A stretch of 64,000 nt of DNA from contig CM000152.2 in assembly GCA_000004695.1 (NCBI GenBank), positions 2,112,001-2,176,000 on the forward strand, written 5' to 3'. Shown here piece by piece: positions 4,083-45,077 of this stretch. Origin of the DNA: Dictyostelium discoideum (Eukaryota). The notes under the pieces are model-generated. The model worked only from the letters and a program-made list of their open reading frames with translations. It was not told where the DNA came from and searched no databases. The translations under genes were made by a program, and so were the position numbers. The number at the start of each line of letters is the position of its first letter. The stretch's first letter is position 1.

Positions 4083-4400
4083 ATATATTAATTTTTAGTG
4101 GTGATGTATTAATTTATAAATTACCAGGACCAATAATTAAACCAAAAGGATTTCAAGGTGATATTAAAGAATTAGAGAATCAAATGAATTCATGTCAATA
4201 TTTAAGAACATTTTCATTATTACAATTTAGAGAGATAACACCAGAAGCAATTGGACCAGTATCAACAATGAGGTGGAATCATGATGATAATTGTTTAGCA
4301 GTTGGTTGGAAGAATAGAGGATTTTGTGTTTGGTCAGTTTATGGTTGTAAATATAACTTGTACAATACCACAAATGAGTAATGATGGTAATAATAATATC

Positions 4401-4465
<65 letters not shown>

Positions 4466-5449
4466 TAATAATAAATATTTAGAACCATGTAGAGATGGTG
4501 TTTTATCATTTAGTTGGGGATTAGAATCATATCATTTAATTTTATTATCAAATGATAATGATGATGGTGAATTTTTTCAATTTACATTTTTAAAAGCATC
4601 ATTAGCATCGAATCCAACATTAAATTATTCTGAGCGTATTATACTTCAAACAGAGGATAGATTAATGTTATTAAATTATAAAGGTAAAGAATTGGGTGAT
4701 ATTCGTTGGAAACATCTTCAAATTCCATCAGCATATTTAAATGATAATTGGCCAATTCGACATATAGCATTATCACGTGATAGAAATCAATATGCAGTTG
4801 CAGGTAAACGAGGTATCATTTTATATAATCAATTAAGTAAACGTTGGAAAATGTTTGGTGATAGAAATCAAGAGCAAGAAATTCAAAGTCTTTCATTGGC
4901 ATGGTATAAAAATGTGGTAATCGTTGCAAACTATTCCATTGAAACCACTAAAAAACATCAATTTCTATTCTTTCCAAAACAACATCTTGATAATTCCTCA
5001 TTATTATACTCTTATCAAATACCTCAAAACCATACACCACAACTATTAGATTGTAATGATATTCATTTAGTATTATTCACTCAAGAATCTTTCTTTTATT
5101 TATTTAGAGTTTTAGAACGTAATCAAAAAATTGAATTACATTTAGTTCATACATTATCAATGGCTGTACCATCAATACCTTTATCAATTTCATTATTACC
5201 ACCAATTCAAGTTTTATTAAATAATAATATTAATAATAATAGTAATAATAATATTAATAATAATATTATTAATAATAATATTATTAATAATAATATTATT
5301 ATTAATAATAATAATCAATCAAAATCATCTTTTATTTCTTCACCAATTAAATTAAATAGAAATAATAATACTAATACTAATAATAGTAATAATAATATAA
5401 CAAATAGTCCATCTTCTCAACAACAATTACAACAATTACAACAACAATT

Positions 5450-5535
<86 letters not shown>

Positions 5536-6521
5536 TACAACAACAACAATTACAACAACAAAAACAATTAGCATATTGTTTAATATTATATTCAAATGGT
5601 AGATTATGTTTAATAAATGCAGAGAATTCAATACAATGTGAATTATCAAATAATATTGAACAATATTGGTTTACAAATATTTATAGAGATAATGAATTAA
5701 TTGGTAATACATTATGGGCATATGGTAATTCAGGTATACAAGTTTGGTTTCCATTTTCATCGGAAGAAATTTTATCAAATAAAAATTTCAATCATAATAA
5801 ATCATTAAGTTTTAATAATGAAGTTTATCCAATTGGTTTTTTAAATGAATTGGGTGTAATTGTTGGATTAAGTCAAGGTATAAGTTATTCATCATGTTCA
5901 GTTTATCCAAATTATGAAATTCATATTAAAACTCATCCATTCCTTCATTCAATTTTAAAACATTTACTAGAGAGAGGTGGTGCTGAAAAAGCTTGGAATC
6001 TATCAAGTAAATTCTATACAATTCCTCATTTCACTCATTCTCTAGAGTTGTTACTTCATGAATTCATCTCTGAAACCGATGATTTAAAGAAACAATTTAA
6101 AATTAAATCACAATCAACCGGTCAATTAAGTCCTGCAGGTTTAAAATTAGAATATGTTATAAACTTTTTAAAGAAATTTCCACAATTTCCAGAGGTTGCA
6201 ATGCGTGCTACAAGAAAAATTGATGCTTCACTTTGGAGAGGTCTATATACAATCATTGGTGATCCTTTTATACTCTATCAAAAATGTTTATCAAATGGTA
6301 AAATTGAAATTGCTGCATCCTATTTAAAAATATTACAACATTTAAATACAAATTCAAATACTTCATTTCAAGATGATATTAGTAGAAAATGTGCAATTGA
6401 ATTATTAGAAATTTCTTTAGATTTTGATAATATTGATTTAGTTGGTGATTTAATTAGATTTTTACATACTTCTGATGAAGATAATGCAACAACTCCAAAA
6501 TTAAATAATAATAATAATTCA

Positions 6522-6552
<31 letters not shown>

Positions 6553-7025
6553 GTTATTATAATGATAATAATAATAATTTAAAAGATAATAATAAACCAA
6601 TTAAACCAACAATTTCAAAAGAATCAAAATTATTTTATAAACAATTAGATTTAATTTTATCAACTTATGCAAATAAATTATTAAAGAATAAACTATTAAG
6701 AAATTTTTTATTATTTTCAAGAAAAACACTTTGTGATGATTTATCAAATTGGTTAATCACTAAAAAGAGATCAACAATTCTTAGAACAGTTGAAGATTTA
6801 GATATGGCATTAAATTCAATTCATGTTCAATTTTATATAAATTTACCAATTGAACCAATTAATCCACCATTTTCATCACAAAGTTTATTAATGGTTTTCT
6901 CACCACAATCAAATGGTTTAGTTGGTAGTACAAGTAATACTGATTTTAATAATTTAAAACAATCTTTATCAATTGATTCTGAATTAGAAAATTTAAATAT
7001 TGATAATATTATTAATAATAATAAT

Positions 7026-7070
<45 letters not shown>

Positions 7071-7637
7071 CAATCATTACCATTATCAATATCACAAGAA
7101 CAACAAATGATTCAAAATTTATCACAATCACCACCAACAATGGTAACAAAGGATGAAATGATTGAATCACTTAAATCAAGAATTAATAATACACCATCAA
7201 AAGATCATCATGTTTCAAGTAATAGTAATGTTGTTAGTAGCGGTGGTGGTGGTGGTGGTGGCGGTAATGGTGGAGTTGTTAATTCTAGTAGTCAATATAA
7301 TTTTAGATCTCATCAATTTATGATTGCACCAACAACTTCAAATGAATATAGCGATCCATTCTTTTTAAAAGAATCAATTGAATCATCAATGGATGATCTT
7401 TATTATTTATTACAAGAATTAACAAATGCAAATTGTTATGAATGGGTATTGGTAATTGCTACAGTTTTATTAAATCCAGTTTTAATCTCAAAAACTTTAA
7501 AAAAAATACCAGATATTTATGAAAACTATTGTAAAATGTTATCACTTCAAAAACCAATTGGATATAATCAATTATTAAAATTTATTGAAGATTCAGTTTA
7601 TCCATTATTACAACAAAAATATTTAGATAAAAAATAA
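2897..7637 (+). CDS. RIC1 homolog (RAB6 GEF complex partner). Exons about 2897-3142, 3246-3412, 3546-?, 4099-?, then a main exon ending 7637; internal structure unresolved
   Basis: N-terminus MYFTFGWPK.. and the long ORF (..DGVLSFSWGLESYHLILL.., ..NWPIRHIALSRDRNQYAVAGKRGIILYN.., WD-like repeats) resemble RIC1. GTAAGT and GTAAAT donors are present. The gene contains (CAA)30 and poly-N tracts. Confidence 0.55.
5450..5533 (+). repeat. (CAA)n microsatellite, about 28 units, encoding poly-Gln inside RIC1
   Basis: Pure caa repeats read directly. Confidence 0.9.
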
Positions 7638-7959
7638 TTTTTTGGAAAATATTATTTTAAAAAATTTAATTATTTCAAAATCCAATACCAAAGAATTTTC
7701 CAAAATTTATATAAACGATCAAATTTTAATAAATAAATAAAAAAAAAAAAAGAAAATTATTAAAATAATAATAATAATAATAATGATTAAAAAAAAAAAA
7801 AAATTGTCTATTTAAATTTTTATTTATTTATTTTATTTTTATTTATTTTATAATATGTTTGTGAGTCACCAATCCAATAACTTTTTTTAGGACGTGTTTA
7901 TTGTTATTTATAACTTAATTTTTTAAAATTATAAAAAAAAAAAATAAAAAAAAAAATTG

Positions 7960-7999
<40 letters not shown>

Positions 8000-8058
8000 T
8001 TACTTAGTTTCATTTTCACATTTGCTGTTAATATATTTTAATAACCTATATATACATA

Positions 8059-8154
8059 ATGATAATGCTTTCTTTTATGGGATTTTTACAATCTTGTTTA
8101 TTGATTGTAAATTCCTTTGCAATCTTAAATGAAAGATTTTTAAATAAAAGTAAG

Positions 8155-8185
<31 letters not shown>

Positions 8186-8481
8186 GTTATTATTATTTAA
8201 AATTCATCTAACTTATTATTCTTATTATTATCATTATCATTATCTATTATAAAGTTGGTTGGGGTGTAAAAAGTGATTTAGATATGAACTCATTTAAAGG
8301 GAAAATAATAACATTATTACATAGTTTAAGATTCTTTTTTAGAAGTATGTTCTCAAATATTTAATAATAGTAATAAAAAATATTTATTTAATCTAACTTA
8401 CTTTTTTACGTAACCAAATATATAGTTCCTTTAGCTTTAGTTAATGCGGTTGTAATCGTTTTCCTTTTAATCTTTGGTTAA
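8059..8481 (+). CDS. Yos1 / IER3IP1 small ER-Golgi membrane protein; exons 8059-8149, 8255-8344, 8426-8481
   Basis: MIMLSFMGFLQSCLLIVNSFAILNERFLNK | IGWGVKSDLDMNSFKGKIITLLHSLRFFFR | IPLALVNAVVIVFLLIFG* matches the IER3IP1 pattern (..LLCVNAIAVLHEERFL..IGWG.....VPLIIVNSIAIVLLLLFG). Donors are GTAAGT and GTATGT; the three exons join in phase 1-1. Confidence 0.6.
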
Positions 8482-8793
8482 ACGATTATTTTTTTATAAT
8501 ATATATTTTATTTTTTTTTTTTATTTTTTTTTTATTTTTTTATTTATTTTTTTTTTTTGGGAAATAAACACTATAAAAAAAAAGAAAAAAAAAAAAAAAA
8601 AAAAAAAAGAAGATATAAAAAAAAAGAAAAAGAATCAGATTCAAACAAACAAAAAAAAAAAAAATTTCCTTTTTTAAAAATAAAATGTAACATAATATAG
8701 AAATTTCTTCAAAACAAACTTTTTTATTTTTATTTTTTTTAATTTATTTTTTTTAATTATTTTTATTTTTTTTTTTATTTTTTTTTATGTAAA

Positions 8794-8824
<31 letters not shown>

Positions 8825-8887
8825 TATTTTTTCATTAATAATAATACATATAAATATATATATATAAAAAAAAAAGAAGAAAAAAAA

Positions 8888-9862
8888 ATGGGTGAACGTA
8901 AAGTTATTTCAAAATATTATCCACCAGATTTTGATCCAAGTAAAGTTGCAAAGATTAAAGTTAAAAGACCAACATTTACAAAAGTAACAACAATGTTACC
9001 AATGAGTATAAGATGTAATACATGTGGTGAATATATTGGTAGAGGTACAAAATTTAATGCAAAAAAAGAGACAGTTCAAAATGAAGATTATTTAGGTATT
9101 AAAATTTATAGATTCTTTTTACGTTGTAAAAAGTGTGCAGCAGAATTAACAATTAAAACCGATCCAAAGAATTCTGAATATGTTTGTGAATCTGGTGCAA
9201 CTAGAAACTATGAACCTTGGAAAGAAACAGATGAAGAGAAATCAAATAGAATGACAAAAGAACAAGAGGAAGAACAAGATGCAATGATTGCTCTTGAAAA
9301 TAGAACTTTAGAATCAAAACGTGAAATGGAAATGCTGGATGCCCTTGAAGAAATTAAATCTTTAAATTCTAGAAATTCTGAAATTGATACTGAACAATTA
9401 TTAGAATATAATTTACAAAAACAAGAACTTGAAGAAAAATTACAAGATGAAGAGGATGATCTTTTAGTAAAATCAATTTTTAATAATAAAAATAAATTAG
9501 AATTAAATCAAATTAATGATAATAATAGTATTAATAATAATATTGACTCTAATAAAATTAAAAGAATTGAAAATGATGATGATGATGGTGATAAATTTAA
9601 TAGTTTATTTTCAAATAATAATAAAAATAATAAAAATATTATCAATAATAATAATAATAATAATAATAATATTAATACAACCTCAATATCCAATACAATC
9701 GAAACAACACCAACAACGAATCAAAAAACATCAATTTTAGGTAATAAAGTTAAAGTAGTAATAAATAAACAAGAGGAACCAATACCGAAAAATAATAATA
9801 ATAGTGAGCCAAATTCATTTTCATCTTTTATGTCGGCTTATAGTGACGACGAAGAAGATTGA
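8888..9862 (+). CDS. Splicing factor YJU2 / CWC16 (CCDC94-like), single exon, 324 aa
   Basis: MGERKVISKYYPPDFDPSK..CNTCGEYIGRGTKFNAKKE..YLGIKIYRFFLRCKKCAAELTIKTDPKNSEYVCESGATRNYEPW is the conserved N-terminal YJU2/DUF572 zinc-binding region, followed by an acidic coiled-coil tail. Confidence 0.8.
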   Translation: MGERKVISKYYPPDFDPSKVAKIKVKRPTFTKVTTMLPMSIRCNTCGEYIGRGTKFNAKKETVQNEDYLGIKIYRFFLRCKKCAAELTIKTDPKNSEYVCESGATRNYEPWKETDEEKSNRMTKEQEEEQDAMIALENRTLESKREMEMLDALEEIKSLNSRNSEIDTEQLLEYNLQKQELEEKLQDEEDDLLVKSIFNNKNKLELNQINDNNSINNNIDSNKIKRIENDDDDGDKFNSLFSNNNKNNKNIINNNNNNNNNINTTSISNTIETTPTTNQKTSILGNKVKVVINKQEEPIPKNNNNSEPNSFSSFMSAYSDDEED

Positions 9863-9957
9863 TATGATAAAAAAAAAAATGAATAATAAAATTGTAATAA
9901 TATTATTTATTTAATTATATGATATAATATAATTGAATAAATAATTTATATTTCTTC

Positions 9958-9982
9958 TCCCAAACACACACCCACACCCCGC
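9958..9982. promoter_or_regulatory. CA-rich element (cccaaacacacacccacaccccgc) in the 3' flank of YJU2
   Basis: A C/A-rich island in otherwise AT-rich DNA. It resembles the Dictyostelium CAE/G-box (GBF-type) motif. Confidence 0.3.
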
Positions 9983-10140
9983 TATCGCAATTTTTTTTTA
10001 TTTTTTTTTTTTTTATATTTTATTTTTCAATAATCGTATCAATGTAATAATAATTAATCATTTATCGAAAGTAAACTTTTTATAATAATTCTTTAATTAA
10101 TTATTTGTGTTTTTATTTTATTTAAATTATTTTTTTTTTT

Positions 10141-10176
<36 letters not shown>

Positions 10177-10376
10177 TTTTTTTTTTTTTTGTTTTCTTTC
10201 ACACCATTTCCAAATTTGTAATAATTGATTAATTCATATTCATTGTAAAAATAAATTATTAAAAAAGTGATTTTTTGTAAAAAACATTTATTTTGAAAAA
10301 AAAAAAAAAAAAAAAAATATAATTAAACACTTCAAATAAATATCATCAAATTATAATAATTTTTTATTACTACAAT

Positions 10377-10434
<58 letters not shown>

Positions 10435-10584
10435 CTATTTTATTTTTTTTATTTTTAAAAAACTAATTTTTTTCAAAAATAAAATAAAATAAAATAAAAA
10501 AAATAAAATAAAATAAATAAAAAAAATAAAATAAAATAAAATAAAAAAAAGATAAAATAAAATAACAATAAACTTTTTTAAAAA

Positions 10585-11047
10585 ATGAATTTATCACAAG
10601 AACATGCAATAAACCAAAATTTACATAAAAATCAAAAAAATGAAGAAAAGATAGAAAAAAAAACAATTAACAAAGATGGTAGAGGTCAAATGAATTATGA
10701 TGGTGAAGAAGGACAAGGAGAAAAATCAAGATTCCAAAAAATGGTTGAAAATGAAAAAATTGAAGAACCACAACAAAAAGATGAAAATATTCCAAATACA
10801 GATGTAATAGAAAGAAAAGAAGTTGGTGTAATTGAAAGAATAAATAGTGAAGATGTACCAATTTTAATGACAGATAATGCTACAGATTATAAAGTTTTAC
10901 AACACAATCTTAAAAAAGGTAAAGTTTCAAAGAAAAGTAAAGAACAAATTGAACAAATCTCTAAACAAGAAGAAAATGATATGTTGGAATATTTAAAAAA
11001 TTATAAATCAAATGAAGAATTTACAATTCAATTAGAAGATTTATTAA
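10585..11047 (+). CDS. KE-rich low-complexity ORF; possible first exon of the EF-hand/PLD gene (the donor 'gttttg' at 11048 joins in phase 1)
   Basis: The ORF ends ..SKEQIEQISKQEENDMLEYLKNYKSNEEFTIQLEDLL, which looks like the N-terminal helix of a calcineurin-B/CHP-type EF-hand domain. A phase-1 donor matches the phase of the next exon. Confidence 0.35.
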
Positions 11048-11067
11048 GTTTTGAAACTTATTGTTTG

Positions 11068-11104
<37 letters not shown>

Positions 11105-11188
11105 TTTTTAAAATACTAATTTAATTTTTATTTATTTATTTTATTTATTTTATTTATTTTCTTAAATAATAATAATAATAAAAAAAAG

Positions 11189-11432
11189 TTTCAAGAGATG
11201 AATTACATTTATTATATAGAGAATTTAAAACAATTTCAAAAAGTGGTATGTTTATGTCAAAAGAGGATTTTATAAGTAAATTAACACCATTCTCAAGAAA
11301 TGCTGATTTAACAATTTCATTAATGAATGCAATTGATCGTAATGGTGATCAAAAAATTGCATTTCCAGAATTTGTTCAAGCATTATCAATAATGTGTAGA
11401 GGTACTAAAAAAGAAAGATTAAGATGTAAGTG

Positions 11433-11472
<40 letters not shown>

Positions 11473-11879
11473 TAATTAATAATTTTTTATTTAATAATTA
11501 TTAATAAAATTATTTTTTTATTTTTTTTATTATTATTTTAATTTAATTTTTATTTTTTTAAAAAAAAGTTACATTTGAAATTTGTGATTTTAATGGTGAT
11601 TCATTAGTATCAAGAGATGAAGTTTATTCAACAGTTAAAGCAATTTCTGATATTTTTTCAAAGTTTGGATATTCAAAAGATAAATTTGGTGATCCATCAG
11701 AAGCTGTAGATTCAATATTTTCAAGTGGTTTAACAACTAATGGTATTTATTTACATAATAAAAAAGAATTAACATTAAATGAATTTTTAGAAAGAGGTGA
11801 ATTAAATCCTGATTTATCAAAATGTTTTGGAATGTTTGATTATTTTTATTTAAAATTTATTGGTCAAATTGATTTATTA
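11189..11879 (+). CDS. EF-hand pair (calcineurin-B/CHP-like), exons 11189-11425 and 11569-11879. Neither exon has a start or stop codon, and both are in phase with flanking exons
   Basis: ..SRDELHLLYREFKTISKSGMFMSKEDFISKL..NAIDRNGDQKIAFPEFVQAL.. contains EF-loop DRNGDQKIAFPE, and ..FEICDFNGDSLVSRDEVYSTVKAISDIF.. contains EF-loop DFNGDSLVSRDE. The donor GTAAGT at 11426 is phase 1, the acceptor AG at 11568, and the donor GTAAAT at 11880 is phase 0. Confidence 0.6.
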
Positions 11880-11983
11880 GTAAATATTATTTTAAAAAAA
11901 AAAACTTTTTTTTATAAAAAAAAAAAAAAAAAAAAATAATAATTAATTTATTAATACTAATTTATCAATTTTTTTTTTTAAAG

Positions 11984-14750
11984 TTTAAAGATAAAGAAAT
12001 TAATATGAATGGTCAATTAACAAAAATTAAACCAAAAACAATTTTTAATTTTAATATTTCACATAGAAGAACTTTATCATTAAGAGATGGATTTTTAATT
12101 GTTTATAAAAAAAAGAAATTTAAACATGATGAAGATAAACCTTCAAAAGTTATATTTTTACCTGGTTCAACTGTTAAAGTTGTAGTTGGTAGTCAACCAA
12201 GTAAAAAAAAGAAATTTTTAAGTAAAAAATTTCATAATTATTATGGATTTAGAGTTACAAAAGGAAATGTAAAAATTTTAAAAATAATTTTATTATTTTT
12301 TTTTTTAGTATATAAATTATTAAAATAATTACTAATTTTTTTTTTTTTTATTTTTTTTTTATTTTTTTTTTATTATTATTGTTATTATTATTAATTTTTT
12401 TATAAATTAGTATAATAGATTTTTTTTAATGGAAAATAGAGATGAAGCATTAAATTGGGTAAATGCAATTAGATTTCATTCTAGACAAGGATTTAGATTT
12501 CAATCATTTTCAAAAGTTAGATCGAATATTAGTGTTGAATGGTTTATTAATGGTTCATCATATTATAATGAATTAGCAGAAACAATTAGAAGAGCAAAAC
12601 ATGAAATATTTATAACAGGTTGGTGGGTTAGTCCTTATGTTTATCTTCAAAGGGATAATGGTATTGAAAATATGGAAAAATCAAGATTAGATAGAATTTT
12701 AACAGAGAAAGCCAAAGAAGGTGTAAAAGTTTATGTATTAATGTGGAATGAAACAAATTTAGGTGTTCAATTGGGTAGTAGACATGCAAAGAATTGGTTA
12801 GAAGGTTGTCATTCAAATATTCATGTAATTAGACATCCAAAACGTTATCCACTCTCTTGGAGTCATCATCAAAAAAATGCAATTATTGATCAACAGATTG
12901 CTTTTGTTGGTGGTATAGATATTTGTTTGATGAGATATGAAACTAGTAAATTTCAATTGACCGATGATCAAGGTAAAAGATTCCCTGGAAAAGATTATGG
13001 TAATTTATTAGGTACTGTCATTAGAACTGGTGATCCTAAAAAAGATCAATTCAATCGTAGAGAATGTCCAAGAATGCCATGGCATGATGTTCATACTAAA
13101 ATAGTTGGTCCATCTGCAAAAGATGTTGCAAGTAATTTCATTCAACGTTGGAATCATGCAATCTATGTTGAGAGATCAAATAGATTTCAACCAATTTTAG
13201 TTCCAAAGAATTACACTGGTTTACCATCTGATGATGCAAAACCTGATAAATGGAAAAATCTTGTTTCTAATATTAGAAAAGGTTTCTCTCATGTTTCTTA
13301 TGGTAGAGAAAAGCCAACTCATTATCAAAGAGCTGGTGATAATCCAAAAGTTAGATCACATACAAGACAAGGTGCTTTTGGTTTACAATCTGATCAAATT
13401 GATAATAAAATTGATAAACAAAAAAATAATTCAACAAATTCTGAAAATTCTGAAAATTCTTATTCAGAATTTGATGAAGAAGATGAAGAAGGTAATCAAG
13501 AAGAAGAAGATGAAGATGAATTTGATGAATTTGAAAAAGATGAAAATCAAAAACAAGAAAATTCAAAAATTCCATTTAATAATAAACCATCAGATGCTGG
13601 TGGTTTAAAATCAAAAAATTATAAAAATAATAATAATAATAATATAATTGAATCATTAAAAGATGAAGAAAGTTTTGAATTACCAGGTACACCAAAAATT
13701 GATTTAAATAATGATAAATTATTAAAATCAATTTATCATTTATCTTCAAATATGTCAGAAAATAGTTGTGTTGTTCAAATGGTTAGATCAATTTGTCCAT
13801 GGTCAGCAGGTACTGATGTTGAAGATTCATGTTATAAAGCTTATTTAGGTTTAATTAAAAATGCTCAACATTTTATTTATATTCAAAATTTATTTTTTAT
13901 TTCAAGTTGTGGTTCAAAATTACCAAAGAATCGTATAGCATTAGCAATTTTAAATAGAGTTAGAAGAGCAATAACTTTAAAAGAAAAGTTTAGAGTTATT
14001 ATAATGGTACCAATTAGTCCATCTGGTGATCTTGCATTAGCATCCTCAAGAATGATTATTGGTTGGACTAATAGAACAATAAGTCAAGGTGGTCAATCAA
14101 TTTTAGAATTATTAAAAAATGAATTTCCTGATGTTGATTTAGATCAATATATTTCATTCAATTCAATTAGACAATGGGAAGCTAATGGTGATAGAATTTT
14201 CACTGAACAAATCTATGTACATAGTAAAGTTTTAATAGTTGATGATCGTGTAGCTGTAATTGGTAGTTGTAATATTAATGATAGAAGTATGATGGGTTCT
14301 CGTGATTCAGAATTGGCAGTAGTCGTTTCTGATCAAAGTAAACTATTAATTACAATGAATGGTAAACCTTTTAAAGTTGGTAAATTCCCTCATACACTTA
14401 GAGTTGGTCTTTGGAAAACTCATTTAAATTTAACTGATTCTGAAATTTCATCAATAATAGATCCAATAACTGATAATGCTTTTATTAATATTTGGAGAAA
14501 AACTGCTAGAAATAATTCAATCATTTATAAAGAAGTATTTGGTGATTGTATTTTAGAAAATCAAAGAAGACTTGGTATTGTTCAAAAAAAATATATTCCA
14601 AAAACAAATGAATTAATTGTTCAATTATCACAAATTCAAGGTGTTTTAATTGAATATCCACTAGATATGTTTTGTGAAAGTAATTTATTTAATGAACAAG
14701 TTGGAATTTTTACTGCTGAATCTTATGTTGATGTTTCAATTTTTACTTAA
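11984..14750 (+). CDS. Phospholipase D, HKD superfamily. A PH-domain exon (11984-12268) joins the catalytic exon (12411-14750). The EF-hand exons upstream are probably part of the same gene
   Basis: Two HKD motifs, WSHHQKNAIIDQQIAFVGGIDI and YVHSKVLIVDDRVAVIGSCNINDRSMMGSRDSELA, plus an acidic insert. The PH-like exon ends in the ..DEALNWVNAI helix. The donor GTAAAA at 12269 and the acceptor tag at 12410 are both phase 0. The upstream acceptor aaag|ttt at 11983 is also phase 0, matching the donor at 11880. Confidence 0.8.
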
Positions 14751-14805
14751 ACAAAAAAAAAAAAAAAAAAAAAAAAATAAAATAATTTTTTATTACATAT
14801 TGTGA

Positions 14806-15020
14806 AAATCATTCAAATCCATTTAAAATATTTGTAATTACAAAAAAGTGAGCAAACTTGGATAGTTCTTACAATAAATATTGTGAAAATAATTCAAAGT
14901 TGTACACTTTTTAAAATTTGAAAATTGTTCATATTATTTTTATATTAGTCCCATTATAAAATATTTGTAGTTACAAAAAAAGTGCTCAAACTTGAATGAT
15001 TCTTACAATATTTATTTAAA
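14806..15020. repeat. Imperfect tandem duplication of a ~70-75-bp unit ('tattgtgaaaat(c/a)attcaaa...aaatatttgta(a/g)ttacaaaaaagtg(a/c)(g/t)caaacttg(g/a)at(a/g)(g/a)ttcttacaata') between two convergent gene 3' ends
   Basis: Two copies were found by eye at about 14806-14890 and 14880/14958-15020. Confidence 0.55.
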
Positions 15021-15092
15021 TTATTTAAATTATTTATTTTTTATTTATTTAAATTGATTTTGATTATTTACTTTTATTTTTTTTTTTTTTTT

Positions 15093-18000
15093 TTAAAGTG
15101 TATTTTTTTTTGAAAAACCTCTTTTAAAAAATTTATAATAAATTAATCTTGAAGTTGTACTATGTCTATATAAAACGATACCAAGTAAAATTACTAAAAT
15201 AACAAAAAGGAAAGCACCACCAATTATAATACCAACTAATTGTGGAGTTGTTAAACCTTTTTTATTTGAAGAACAAATTGAATTTGGATCATCACTATTT
15301 GTTGATCTTGAATCAACTAAAACACTAAAATTTGGATCTAAACTAATTTCTCTTTTATAATTTGGAATTTCCATTGCAATAAATGATTTTGAATTACTAG
15401 AATTATTACTATCATACATATTAATTGGTATTTGAGTTATTGTTGAAATTAAACCATCAATAATTGAACGTTTTAAAAATCTACCTAATAAAATGATATT
15501 ATCAATTTTAACTTGAATAAAACTTGAATCACCATTATCACCAAATTGAGAAGATGAGCAAATATCATCAGTTTTACTAGTTTCAAGTGATGCTGAAATT
15601 AATAGTTGTAAAGTATTTAAATTTGATTTAAATTCATAATGATCCATATCAATACTATATTTAACAGTATTTGGTTCAATTGAAATATTTGAATTTGCAA
15701 ATGTTATAATTTTATATTCATGATATCTTACAATTTTTACAATAATATTAGTTTTCAAATTATTAACAGTATCACTAATAATTGAAGTATTAAATTGAAA
15801 ATGATCATTATCAGTTTTAATAAAACTCCAATTTGAGAAAATAAATTCTCTAACTAATTTACCATTGAAATCAATTTCTTTAAGTGAATAAACTACAATT
15901 AAACTTTTATATTCACCTTCATAATTGAAATTAACATTTGGTGCATTTGGATCAATTGTACCATTTGAACCAGAACTTGTTGATAAACAATCTAAACCTG
16001 TATTTGGTGCAATACAAAGACATGTAAAATCAGATTTACAAGTACCTCTCGATGGGCCACCACAACTTGGTATACCTGGACATTGTTTTGGTGTAGTAGT
16101 TGGTGTATTAGTTGGATTAGGAGTTATTGAACCATCGGCTGGAATAGTTAAAGGATAATAATCTGAAATTAAACCATCCGATGTTTGAATTGCAATTTCA
16201 ATTTTATTTTCAACACCAAAACTTTTAATTTGATCAGTTATAATTTGTCTATCAGAGAATGAAATAAAATTTTTAATTGTTACTGATGATGAACCACTTG
16301 TAATAAATTTAATAATTAAATTTGAAGTCAAATAACCCATTCTAAAACCATTAATTGTAATTAAACCATTATTATAATTTGCGTTTAGAATTTCTGGTTT
16401 CTCTTCGATCGTATTATTAATATAATAGGTTTTACCTAAAGATTTTAAACTATCAGTACTAAAACCAATTACATTTAAACAATTATCAGTTACACCAAAT
16501 ATTGAAAGTGTAATACCATCTGGATAACCAAAAGAGAATGGAATCATTGCATTCATTGAATAACTATAGGATCCATCATCATTTATTGATTTCATTGTTT
16601 GATTTGATGTAATAACTGATAAACTTGATGAAGCTAAATAAACAACTGGATCATGTCTTTGAGAGATACCATAGGAAAAAGAACTTGTTATAACATTAAA
16701 TGTTATACTTTTAAAAAGTCCATCATTGGTTTTTATTAATGGTGAAACAGTGAAATCAATAAGATTTGGTGGATTTGGTTGACAATTTTGTTTACCACCA
16801 ATTGTAGTTATTGATAATGCAGTTAAATTGACTTTCATAAATGGATTAACTTTTGTAACCGATGGATATTCACTAATATGACCTTGTTTATCTACTAACC
16901 AAGCATAGGCAATACGATAAGTTTGAGCTCTATCATTAGGTGTAATTGGAATATTTAAATGTTTAAGTGAATCTCCTTTTGAATTTAAAGTGAAATTCCA
17001 ACCCAATGGATCTAAATCACTAATAATAGTAATTATACCATAATCGAAACCATTAATTGAATCTATTATATAAAATGAAAATGTAATATTAATTGTTTCT
17101 GTTGTTGGAATTTGGACTGGACTTGCTAAATATGAATAATAATCAATAATTGGTGGCATAATATCAGAGGTTGAAGATTTAACTCTTAGTTCTGCACTTG
17201 AATTAAAAACTGAATATAAAAGTACATTATCAAATTGAATTGGTGAAATCATATATGATATTGGACCAGTGAAAACATTTGCAGGTATATTAATTGTAAA
17301 CTCTGAATAATTTGTAATTGGATTAAATTTACTAATAATTGCTTGATCAGTTTCATCACGGAAATAATCATTACCTTTTTGAGCTTGATAAACAATACGG
17401 AAATTTGTTGCCAATGCAAATGAATAATTTGGAATTACTGGTTCAGTTTTAAGATACATTATTACAGTTTTTGGGGAATTTGTAACATCTAAATCATTTT
17501 CACTGAAATAAATATCTTTAATAAAATCTAAACTACCAATTAATGGTGGAATATATGGTACACTTGTAATAATATCCAAATTACTATTATAAACATCATA
17601 TTGTCGAAATAATTTTGAATTACCAACTCTATCAATTAATGTGAGTTTAACAGCAGCAAATGCAACACCAATCACTGCTTTTGGAATTGTAATTCTATAA
17701 GTTCCATTATAAATTGTACCTTGAATTAAATCATTTGGAGAAAATTGATAAATACATGCAACTGAACATAAATTTACAGATATTGAACCAACACCACTAT
17801 CTTTATCACCAACACTAACAACAATTGAAAAAGATGATCCTTTTTCTTCATAACCATAATAATATAAAATTGGTGTTTGATTATCAGTGAAACCACTATC
17901 TGTTGGTGTAAAAACTTTATCAAAATAAATATCATTATTTGATAAACCAAAATAAACTGATAAACTAATTGATTGTTGGAGATATCTAAGAGTTGGCATT

Positions 18001-18272
18001 TCAAATTGATAATTAATTAAATTATTTGTAACATTAAAAACTCCAAATGGATAATTAATTGATTGTCTTATACTTGAAAATTGATCATTAATTAAAACAA
18101 TTGGTCCTAAATATGGTGAACTAAATAAATATGAAATACCTGAATAATTTATATCTTTAATAACTTTACCTCCAAAATTATTTGGTATCATTTCATTTTC
18201 TATTTTTTTTAATTATTTAAATTAAATTAATAAAAAAAATGAAAAAAAATAAAAAAAATAAAAAAATATTAA

Positions 18273-44624: not shown

Positions 44625-44653
44625 TTAATCTAATTTTGGTCGGAATAAAAACC

Positions 44654-44725
44654 CTCCCCATTCGGGAATCGAACCCGAGGTACCAGTGTGAAAGACTAGA
44701 GTGTTACCGACTACACCAATGAGGA
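44654..44725 (-). tRNA. tRNA-Glu (anticodon UUC), 72 nt
   Basis: Minus-strand sequence TCCTCATTGGTGTAGTCGGTAACACTCTAGTCTTTCACACTGGTACCTCGGGTTCGATTCCCGAATGGGGAG folds by hand as follows. A 7-bp acceptor stem with one G-U pair. A D-arm GTGT/ACAC with a GG loop. Anticodon stem CTAGT/ACTGG with loop CTTTCAC. T-arm TCGGG-TTCGATT-CCCGA. Confidence 0.8.
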
Positions 44726-45077
44726 ATTGGATGAAATTTCAATTTTTTTAGTAAAAAATATTTATAAAAAAAAAATTTATATGGAAAATAAAATACCATT
44801 AAAACAAAAACCACAAAAAACAACAAAGCCAACAAAAAAATAAACAACAAAAACCAACAACATCCTAAGGCTGTTTAAAAACTAGGCCCTCTATTAACAA
44901 AACCATAAATAAAATGACAACAAGTAGAATCAACAAACAATTGCATTAACCAATTCAAAAAAAAAAAATTCCAAAAATAAAATATTTCAAAATTACAATT
45001 ACAATTTTAAAATATACTAATTTGATAAAATATTTTATTTAAAAATAAAATCTATTAAATTTATGGTTTTAGGAAAA

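Follow-up and report, generated by a model that had tools for sequence, protein, structure and literature searches.

Introduction

At the plasma membrane, the mammalian phospholipase D (PLD) enzymes PLD1 and PLD2 generate phosphatidic acid by hydrolysing phosphatidylcholine, and plant PLDs carry an N-terminal Ca2+-dependent membrane-binding module in place of PX-PH. Among Ca2+ sensors of the NCS family, an inactive first EF-hand (EF1) combined with active second and third EF-hands (EF2 and EF3) is the normal pattern, and most members are N-terminally myristoylated at a Met-Gly start and operate a Ca2+/myristoyl switch. Here we describe pldB, a PLD gene of Dictyostelium discoideum that lies at positions 10585-14750 on the plus strand of a 64,000-nucleotide (nt) stretch of genomic DNA (the window; assembly GCA_000004695.1, contig CM000152.2, positions 2,112,001 to 2,176,000), and compare its product, PldB, with these systems. 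All positions given below are those of the window.

PldB has been studied by Honda et al., who called it a PLD1/2 homologue, handled it as a PLD and used overexpression and null cells (bioRxiv 10.1101/2024.07.08.602473). Their map of the protein comprises EF-hand-like motifs, a PH domain at residues 346-464 and a catalytic fragment at residues 886-1216. The PH domain alone and residues 1-346 were both cytosolic, residues 1-464 showed weak binding to the plasma membrane, and the EF-hand and PH regions were described as cooperating in membrane binding. The wording "EF-hand-like motifs" is that of the preprint, in which no Ca2+ experiment on PldB is reported. A link between an NCS protein and PLD has been described in mammalian cells, where Ca2+-induced activation of PLD is reported to depend on hippocalcin acting in trans (PMC5233403, citing Hyun et al. 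2000). The literature that we searched, the coverage of which is incomplete, contained no Ca2+ test on PldB, no link between NCS proteins and PLD drawn from a fusion, and no assignment of the PldB module to the NCS family; for an explicit EF-hand or NCS description of amoebozoan PLDs, it yielded the 2024 preprint of Honda et al. alone.

The locus is D. discoideum pldB

Three-frame translation of the plus strand between 10400 and 14800 revealed five open segments. The surrounding sequence (9800-15500) has a Dictyostelium-like composition, with coding blocks of 20-27% G+C set between stretches of 3-6% G+C. Joining the five exons at gt…ag sites produced an unbroken coding sequence of 3651 nt that starts with an ATG at 10585 and ends with a TAA codon in exon 5. 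The introns contain 2.8-4.8% G+C compared with 20-27% for the exons, A/T runs precede every acceptor, and retention of any one intron leads to a stop codon 2 to 21 codons on. The spliced translation was identical over 1216/1216 residues to PLDB_DICDI (EAL67680.1, XP_641653.1, UniRef100_Q54WR4 / Q54WR4), which is listed as "phospholipase D1 [Dictyostelium discoideum AX4]" and as "Phospholipase D B, PLDB_DICDI". A residue-for-residue match of this kind is far beyond chance. The locus is D. discoideum pldB, with five exons, four short AT-rich introns and a product, phospholipase D B, of 1216 amino acids (aa); product, genomic neighbours and published domain map all equal those of PldB, with no difference.

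An earlier interpretation of this stretch, made without database searches (the sequence-only reading), had proposed one gene across 10585-14750, with introns in the AT-rich gaps, junctions at 11425/11569, 11879/11984 and 12268/12411, and phases of 1, 1, 0 and 0 for introns 1 to 4. The exact match to PldB bore out each of these points, the gaps being in-frame gt…ag introns of 104-143 nt. Comparison with annotated Dictyostelium PLD models identified pldB as the exact match, and the conceptual protein of 1,400 aa proved longer than the actual 1216 aa. Neither the gene nor its EF-hand–PH–PLD arrangement is new, since databases already list the protein, and a preprint has described EF-hand-like motifs in it (bioRxiv 10.1101/2024.07.08.602473).

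The same locus was found in the D. discoideum assembly GCA_054883475.1. Window positions 7585-17750 are 99.5% identical to this assembly, with one mismatch and eight gap openings, and pldB spans 4161 bp there, flanked as in the window by a Saf4/Yju2 gene and a large convergent gene. Four further strains of the D. discoideum group, annotated independently, have proteins of 1207-1223 aa with the same architecture. Strain differences in PldB cluster in the low-complexity N-terminus and in an acidic loop, and the EF2 and EF3 loops are unaltered among the five strains of the group.

PldB is a predicted PLD1/2-type enzyme that lacks a PX domain

PldB begins with a disordered segment rich in K and E, which is followed by an NCS/KChIP-type domain with four EF-hands (about aa 146-342), by PH (about aa 346-464) and by a PLD1/PLD2-type catalytic domain in which both HKD motifs are intact. 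The K/E/N-rich low-complexity N-terminus encoded by exon 1 had no Pfam match. Pfam placed a PH domain at aa 350-460 (28.8 bits, cut-off 25.1) and PLDc in two stretches (51.7 bits, cut-off 21.9; the second at aa 1037-1063), together with PLDc_2; EF-hand_1 fell just short of its threshold, so the domain composition of the sequence-only reading was recovered above cut-off for PH and PLDc only. Intron 4 splits the PH domain, and its C-terminal helix is therefore encoded by exon 5. The earlier proposal of a PH-like exon joined in phase to the catalytic exon was thus right as to the frame but not as to this division.

Exon 5 matched the catalytic domain of human PLD1 (6U8Z) with an E value of 5e-111 and that of PLD2 (6OHM) with an E value of 9e-97. 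PldB shares with the mammalian enzymes (6U8Z, 6OHR, 6OHM) this catalytic domain (E 5e-111 to 9e-97), the two HKD motifs, a PH domain N-terminal to it and an internal loop region; the catalytic domain of PldB contains an acidic low-complexity loop at about aa 775-860. Unlike PLD1 and PLD2, PldB has no PX domain (no Pfam match at E ≤ 1), and the NCS-like four-EF-hand domain fills the position that PX occupies in animal and fungal PLDs. The sequence-only reading had also set the arrangement apart from the classical PX-PH-HKD order, and we agree. Plant C2-domain PLDs such as PLD alpha 1 (PDB 6KZ8) likewise have an HKD catalytic domain (E 2.8e-35); however, it is much more distant from that of PldB, their Ca2+ module is a C2 domain rather than a set of EF-hands, and they lack PH. 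Judged by these homologies, PldB is a predicted enzyme of the eukaryotic PLD1/2 type of HKD phospholipase D without the classical PX domain.

The EF-hand module is closest to NCS and KChIP proteins

The sequence-only reading had recognized a calcineurin-B/CHP-like pair of EF-hands in exons 2 and 3. An EF-hand module is indeed encoded there, but it has four EF-hands and is of the NCS/KChIP type. When the EF-hand region was used as a phmmer query, KChIP1 was matched with an E value of 1e-20 (query residues 9-182 against KChIP1 residues 9-178, about 170 residues) and NCS-1 with an E value of 1e-17, and PldB aa 146-342 aligned end to end with both. Among the 60 phmmer matches listed, calcineurin B (E 1e-10 to 1e-13) aligned only over the first half of the query (residues 13-118) and scored about 25-30 bits below KChIP and NCS-1; CHP had no entry among them. 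Calcineurin B and CHP belong to the same broad class of regulatory proteins with four EF-hands, and the calcineurin B match is significant, but its half length and lower bit scores make calcineurin B the more distant relative.

Structural comparison led to a similar result. An AlphaFold model of PldB aa 141-480, built from a five-sequence alignment, had a mean predicted local distance difference test (pLDDT) score of 69, with values of about 60-88 per ten-residue block (mostly 77-88) in the EF-hand domain. In the Protein Data Bank (PDB), Foldseek matched this model best to NCS-1, KChIP1, frequenin and hippocalcin. The alignments covered about 185 columns, and target template modelling (TM) scores were 0.75-0.80 (about 0.77 for NCS-1). 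On the full-length phmmer scores and these fold matches, the calcineurin B/CHP assignment was dropped in favour of NCS/KChIP. Alignment and model together point to a complete domain of four EF-hands, closest to NCS/KChIP proteins.

The domain begins within exon 1, from about aa 146 (…LEDLLSFETY). The EF1 loop TISKSGMFMSKE is degenerate, with no Asp at position 1. EF3 retains all of its side-chain ligand positions (D1, N3, D5 and E12) and misses the strict PROSITE pattern because of the Ser at loop position 6. Across a five-sequence alignment of homologues, D245, V252 and E256 (loop positions 1, 8 and 12) of EF3 are invariant. At the C-terminus of the domain, the PldB helix CFGMFDYFYLKF aligns with the last helix of KChIP1. 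PldB therefore resembles the NCS family (NCS-1/frequenin, KChIP1-4, hippocalcin and recoverin) in its full-length collinear match of about 170-185 residues, its predicted fold, its degenerate EF1, its canonical or near-canonical EF2 and EF3, and its conserved C-terminal helix. It differs from the family in the replacement of the Cys-Pro of EF1 (KSG for CPSG), in an insertion in EF4, and in that the domain lies inside an enzyme of 1216 aa and lacks Met-Gly. The N-terminus of PldB (MNLSQE) has no Met-Gly myristoylation site and the domain starts at about aa 146; because the domain is internal, N-myristoylation, and with it a Ca2+/myristoyl switch, is impossible.

The start of this domain also bears on the first splice donor. 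The sequence-only reading had suggested, as its least certain part, that the KE-rich open reading frame (ORF) at 10585 might supply the start codon through a weak donor gttttg. That ORF does hold the start ATG, but the donor is gtttgt at 11063 and not gttttg at 11048. The two sites are 15 nt apart, both in phase 1 and each weak against the gtaagt consensus, and if 11048 were used, even if only as an alternative 5' splice site, the resulting isoform would have 1211 aa and lack the S-F-E-T-Y encoded by these 15 nt. We consider such use very unlikely. The protein collection contained an exact match to the 1216-aa product of the 11063 model but none to the 1211-aa product; moreover, the upstream donor would drop T158 and Y159 of the T-Y-F motif, at the start of the NCS-like domain, which is conserved in homologues and in KChIP1 (T-N-F). 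T158 and F160 do not vary between PldB and four aligned homologues, and the T-x-F motif lines up with the start of KChIP1. The first donor was placed at 11063 on the basis of the exact match and this conservation.

The fusion is shared by other Amoebozoa

The translation of exon 3 was used to search 1.84 billion representative proteins at a stringent library-wide E value. This search returned 10 matches, 7 of which were proteins of 1027-1420 aa. Pfam EF-hand, PH and PLDc domains occur in one chain in P0006 and in the metagenome proteins P0008 and P0013. For P0012 (Clastostelium recurvatum) and P0015 (Protostelium nocturnum), Pfam identified PH and PLDc, the EF-hand region being recognized through exon 3 homology and alignment only; for P0014, Pfam identified PLDc only, and EF-hand-like and PH-like regions were visible in the alignment. 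The Clastostelium and Protostelium sequences are ORFs of TRINITY transcripts and so provide transcript-level evidence for one reading frame in these two species. The three metagenome homologues nearly fill their contigs of 3.2-4.1 kb.

The closest homologue, P0006, is 65% identical to PldB in exon 3, and its alignment spans all four junctions with no indel at any of them. Conserved blocks of the homologue alignment lie at the start of the domain (T-Y-F…E-L…L-Y) and over EF3 (LS-M-RG…F-ICD…V…E). A strongly conserved CFG[LM]F-YF helix corresponds in the alignment to the last helix of KChIP1 and passes directly into PH. Of seven sequences, six have a canonical or near-canonical EF3. Because the same arrangement occurs in single ORFs of other Amoebozoa, transcriptome assemblies included, the EF-hand–PH–HKD×2 fusion is, on the sequence evidence, genuine and old.

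We also considered whether the EF-hand exons form a separate small gene for a calcium-binding protein, the annotated 1216-aa product being an artificial merger of two genes. In favour of this, support for the pldB junctions comes here from the annotated protein and from homologue collinearity; retention of intron 3 would bring a stop at 11937 and give an EF-hand protein of roughly 360 aa, and gene models in AT-rich genomes are sometimes merged. One homologue is itself visibly faulty: P0007 (Heterostelium album XP_020431582.1, "phospholipase D1") starts inside EF3 and lacks most of PH, and its Pfam EF-hand matches fall in an unrelated C-terminal tail of about 330 residues with another EF-hand pair. 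It is probably a faulty gene model, cut short at its 5' end and joined to the gene that follows. Nevertheless, a two-gene origin of pldB is extremely improbable. As the sequence-only reading had pointed out, the exons at 11189-11425 and 11569-11879 have no stop codon and no sensibly placed start codon. All four junctions are in phase at good gt…ag sites, and gaps of 104-143 nt at 3-5% G+C are of typical intron size and leave no room for a terminator plus a promoter. The Clastostelium and Protostelium transcript ORFs and the single-ORF metagenome contigs combine an EF-hand-like region, PH and PLD in one protein, the CFG[LM]F helix leads directly into PH in all homologues, and PldB fragments 1-346 and 1-464 have been expressed on this domain map (bioRxiv 10.1101/2024.07.08.602473).

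The N-termini of some homologues contain further sequence. P0013 has a Vps62 domain (E 2e-13) ahead of its EF-hand-like region. P0008, P0014 and P0015 each have about 150-170 additional N-terminal residues with no Pfam match, which look related by eye (…ITIINNTNL…).

A possible Ca2+ switch in PldB

Direct control of PldB by Ca2+, which the sequence-only reading had suggested, is plausible. Ca2+ would bind EF2 and EF3, the pair that is functional in all NCS proteins, and would reshape the hydrophobic groove and the C-terminal helix of the EF-hand domain. This helix, attached directly to PH, would pass the change on to the PH domain, and the outcome would be tuned membrane recruitment and/or relief of autoinhibition of the catalytic domain. 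PldB would thus carry an internal, non-myristoylated calcium switch for PLD. Taken whole, an explanation that combines the identity of pldB, the four-part domain order and this Ca2+ step is in our judgement very probable. The stronger proposal, that the module is a bona fide NCS/KChIP-type sensor that replaced PX in an old amoebozoan PLD lineage and gives the enzyme a Ca2+ switch of its own, independent of myristoylation, that acts on membrane recruitment or activation, is put forward tentatively, as a possibility short of even odds.

Several points weigh against the combined explanation. Ca2+ binding by EF2 and EF3 is a prediction from the loop sequences. EF1 is degenerate, as is EF4, which also has an insertion; EF3 has Ser at position 6 and does not match PS00018. 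The Pfam EF-hand_1 match at aa 204-226 scored 24.4 bits, just under the cut-off of 25.4. EF2 is canonical in the dictyostelid sequences and P0013 only and is degenerate in more distant homologues. The PH part of the predicted structure, a beta-sandwich with a C-terminal helix, is of low confidence (pLDDT 37-77).

Much of this would also fit a gene that is pldB, yet in which the NCS-like domain is insensitive to Ca2+ and acts as a structural or protein-/lipid-interaction module that aids constitutive membrane binding by PH. Such a role would suit the degenerate EF1 and EF4, the non-Gly residue in EF3, Pfam EF-hand scores at or below the gathering thresholds, and the loss of a canonical EF2 in P0008, P0014 and P0015, with both loops weak in P0012 from Clastostelium. 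It would suit as well the description of "EF-hand-like motifs" only, without a Ca2+ experiment on PldB, in the published study (bioRxiv 10.1101/2024.07.08.602473). However, EF2 is a perfect PS00018 match, and EF3 keeps its full set of side-chain ligands. Loop positions 1, 8 and 12 of EF3 are invariant across homologues of about 30% identity, as would be expected under selection for metal binding. Functional NCS proteins, furthermore, normally combine a dead EF1 with active EF2 and EF3. We regard a Ca2+-insensitive module as possible but somewhat doubtful.

Feature map and neighbouring genes

The features of pldB are listed in Table 1.

Table 1. Coordinates of pldB exons, introns and motifs in the window
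Feature	Positions	Strand	Description
5' intergenic/promoter region	9863..10584	+	From the Saf4/Yju2 stop to the pldB ATG; extreme A+T content, with long runs of T and of A
Exon 1	10585..11062	+	aa 1-159 plus first base of codon 160
Intron 1	11063..11188	+	126 nt, 4.8% G+C, donor gtttgt at 11063, phase 1
Exon 2	11189..11425	+	aa 160-238 plus first base of codon 239; degenerate EF1 TISKSGMFMSKE and EF2
EF2 Ca2+-binding loop (predicted) DRNGDQKIAFPE	11335..11370	+	aa 209-220; PROSITE PS00018 match, Pfam EF-hand_1 aa 204-226
Intron 2	11426..11568	+	143 nt, 2.8% G+C, gtaagt…ag, donor phase 1; acceptor takes 2 bases
Exon 3	11569..11879	+	aa 239-342; EF3, degenerate EF4 with insertion, C-terminal helix CFGMFDYFYLKF
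EF3 loop DFNGDSLVSRDE	11586..11621	+	aa 245-256; near-canonical, Ser not Gly at loop position 6
Intron 3	11880..11983	+	104 nt, 4.8% G+C, gtaaat…ag, phase 0
Exon 4	11984..12268	+	aa 343-437; N-terminal beta-strand part of PH domain
Intron 4	12269..12410	+	142 nt, 3.5% G+C, gtaaaa…ag; inside PH domain
Exon 5	12411..14750	+	aa 438-1216 plus TAA; PH C-terminal helix (to about aa 460-464), PLD1/2-type catalytic domain
First HKD motif HQKNAIIDQQIAFVGGID	12867..12920	+	aa 590-607; motif scan HxKx4Dx6G[GS]x[ND], Pfam PLDc
Second HKD motif HSKVLIVDDRVAVIGSCN	14220..14273	+	aa 1041-1058; motif scan HxKx4Dx6G[GS]x[ND], Pfam PLDc

Upstream of pldB, an intronless ORF of 324 aa (MGERKVISKYYPPDFDP…; 8888-9862, plus strand) corresponds to a gene with a Pfam Saf4_Yju2 (splicing factor) match in the GCA_054883475.1 record. 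A further ORF of 1111 aa (4302-7637, plus strand) contains very long poly-Asn and poly-Gln tracts and is probably part of the 1435-aa gene that lies upstream of Yju2 in the matching record, for which no Pfam match is recorded. Downstream, a convergent gene occupies 15093-18191 on the minus strand and beyond, with an ORF of 1032 aa in the window and an annotated product of 1378 aa. This product has DUF7035, DUF7034, DUF7949 and ComC_SSD domains and resembles a large protein that is secreted or membrane-bound and has a transmembrane segment at its C-terminus. The only tRNA gene found in the window encodes tRNA-Glu (anticodon TTC; 44653-44726, minus strand).

The 342-bp gap between the convergent stops of pldB (14750) and the minus-strand gene (15093) contains an imperfect direct repeat of about 60 nt within 14794-15016. 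Its copies, at 14824-14882 and 14957-15016, are 83-96% identical and 133-134 nt apart, and the segment 14873-14912 is an inverted copy, 83% complementary to 14977-15016. At about 21%, the G+C content of the repeat is somewhat higher than that of other intergenic DNA in this region (5-12% upstream of pldB). It occurs in two copies only in the window, where none would be expected by chance, and had no match in Rfam.

Discussion

The sequence-only reading reconstructed a known gene by hand almost without error and adds nothing new on the pldB locus itself, although it shows that splice-phase reasoning is workable in the AT-rich Dictyostelium genome. The residual point is a modest one, namely the NCS-type identity of the EF-hand domain and the parallel between hippocalcin and PLD. 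By analogy with the regulation of PLD by hippocalcin in mammals, we speculate that the amoebozoan fusion is consistent with a direct NCS–PLD partnership.

PldB matters in Dictyostelium quorum sensing, motility and the dynamics of patches of phosphatidylinositol 3,4,5-trisphosphate (PIP3). Recognition of a complete NCS-type sensor within the enzyme suggests a simple route by which Ca2+ may control phosphatidic acid production, for which the conserved EF3 site and the helix that runs into PH are obvious targets. If this is true, the domain arrangement of PldB would be a "Rosetta-stone" fusion that independently supports direct NCS–PLD coupling in animals, of the kind reported for hippocalcin-dependent PLD activation by Ca2+ in mammalian cells, and it would suggest that docking takes place at the part of PLD near PH.

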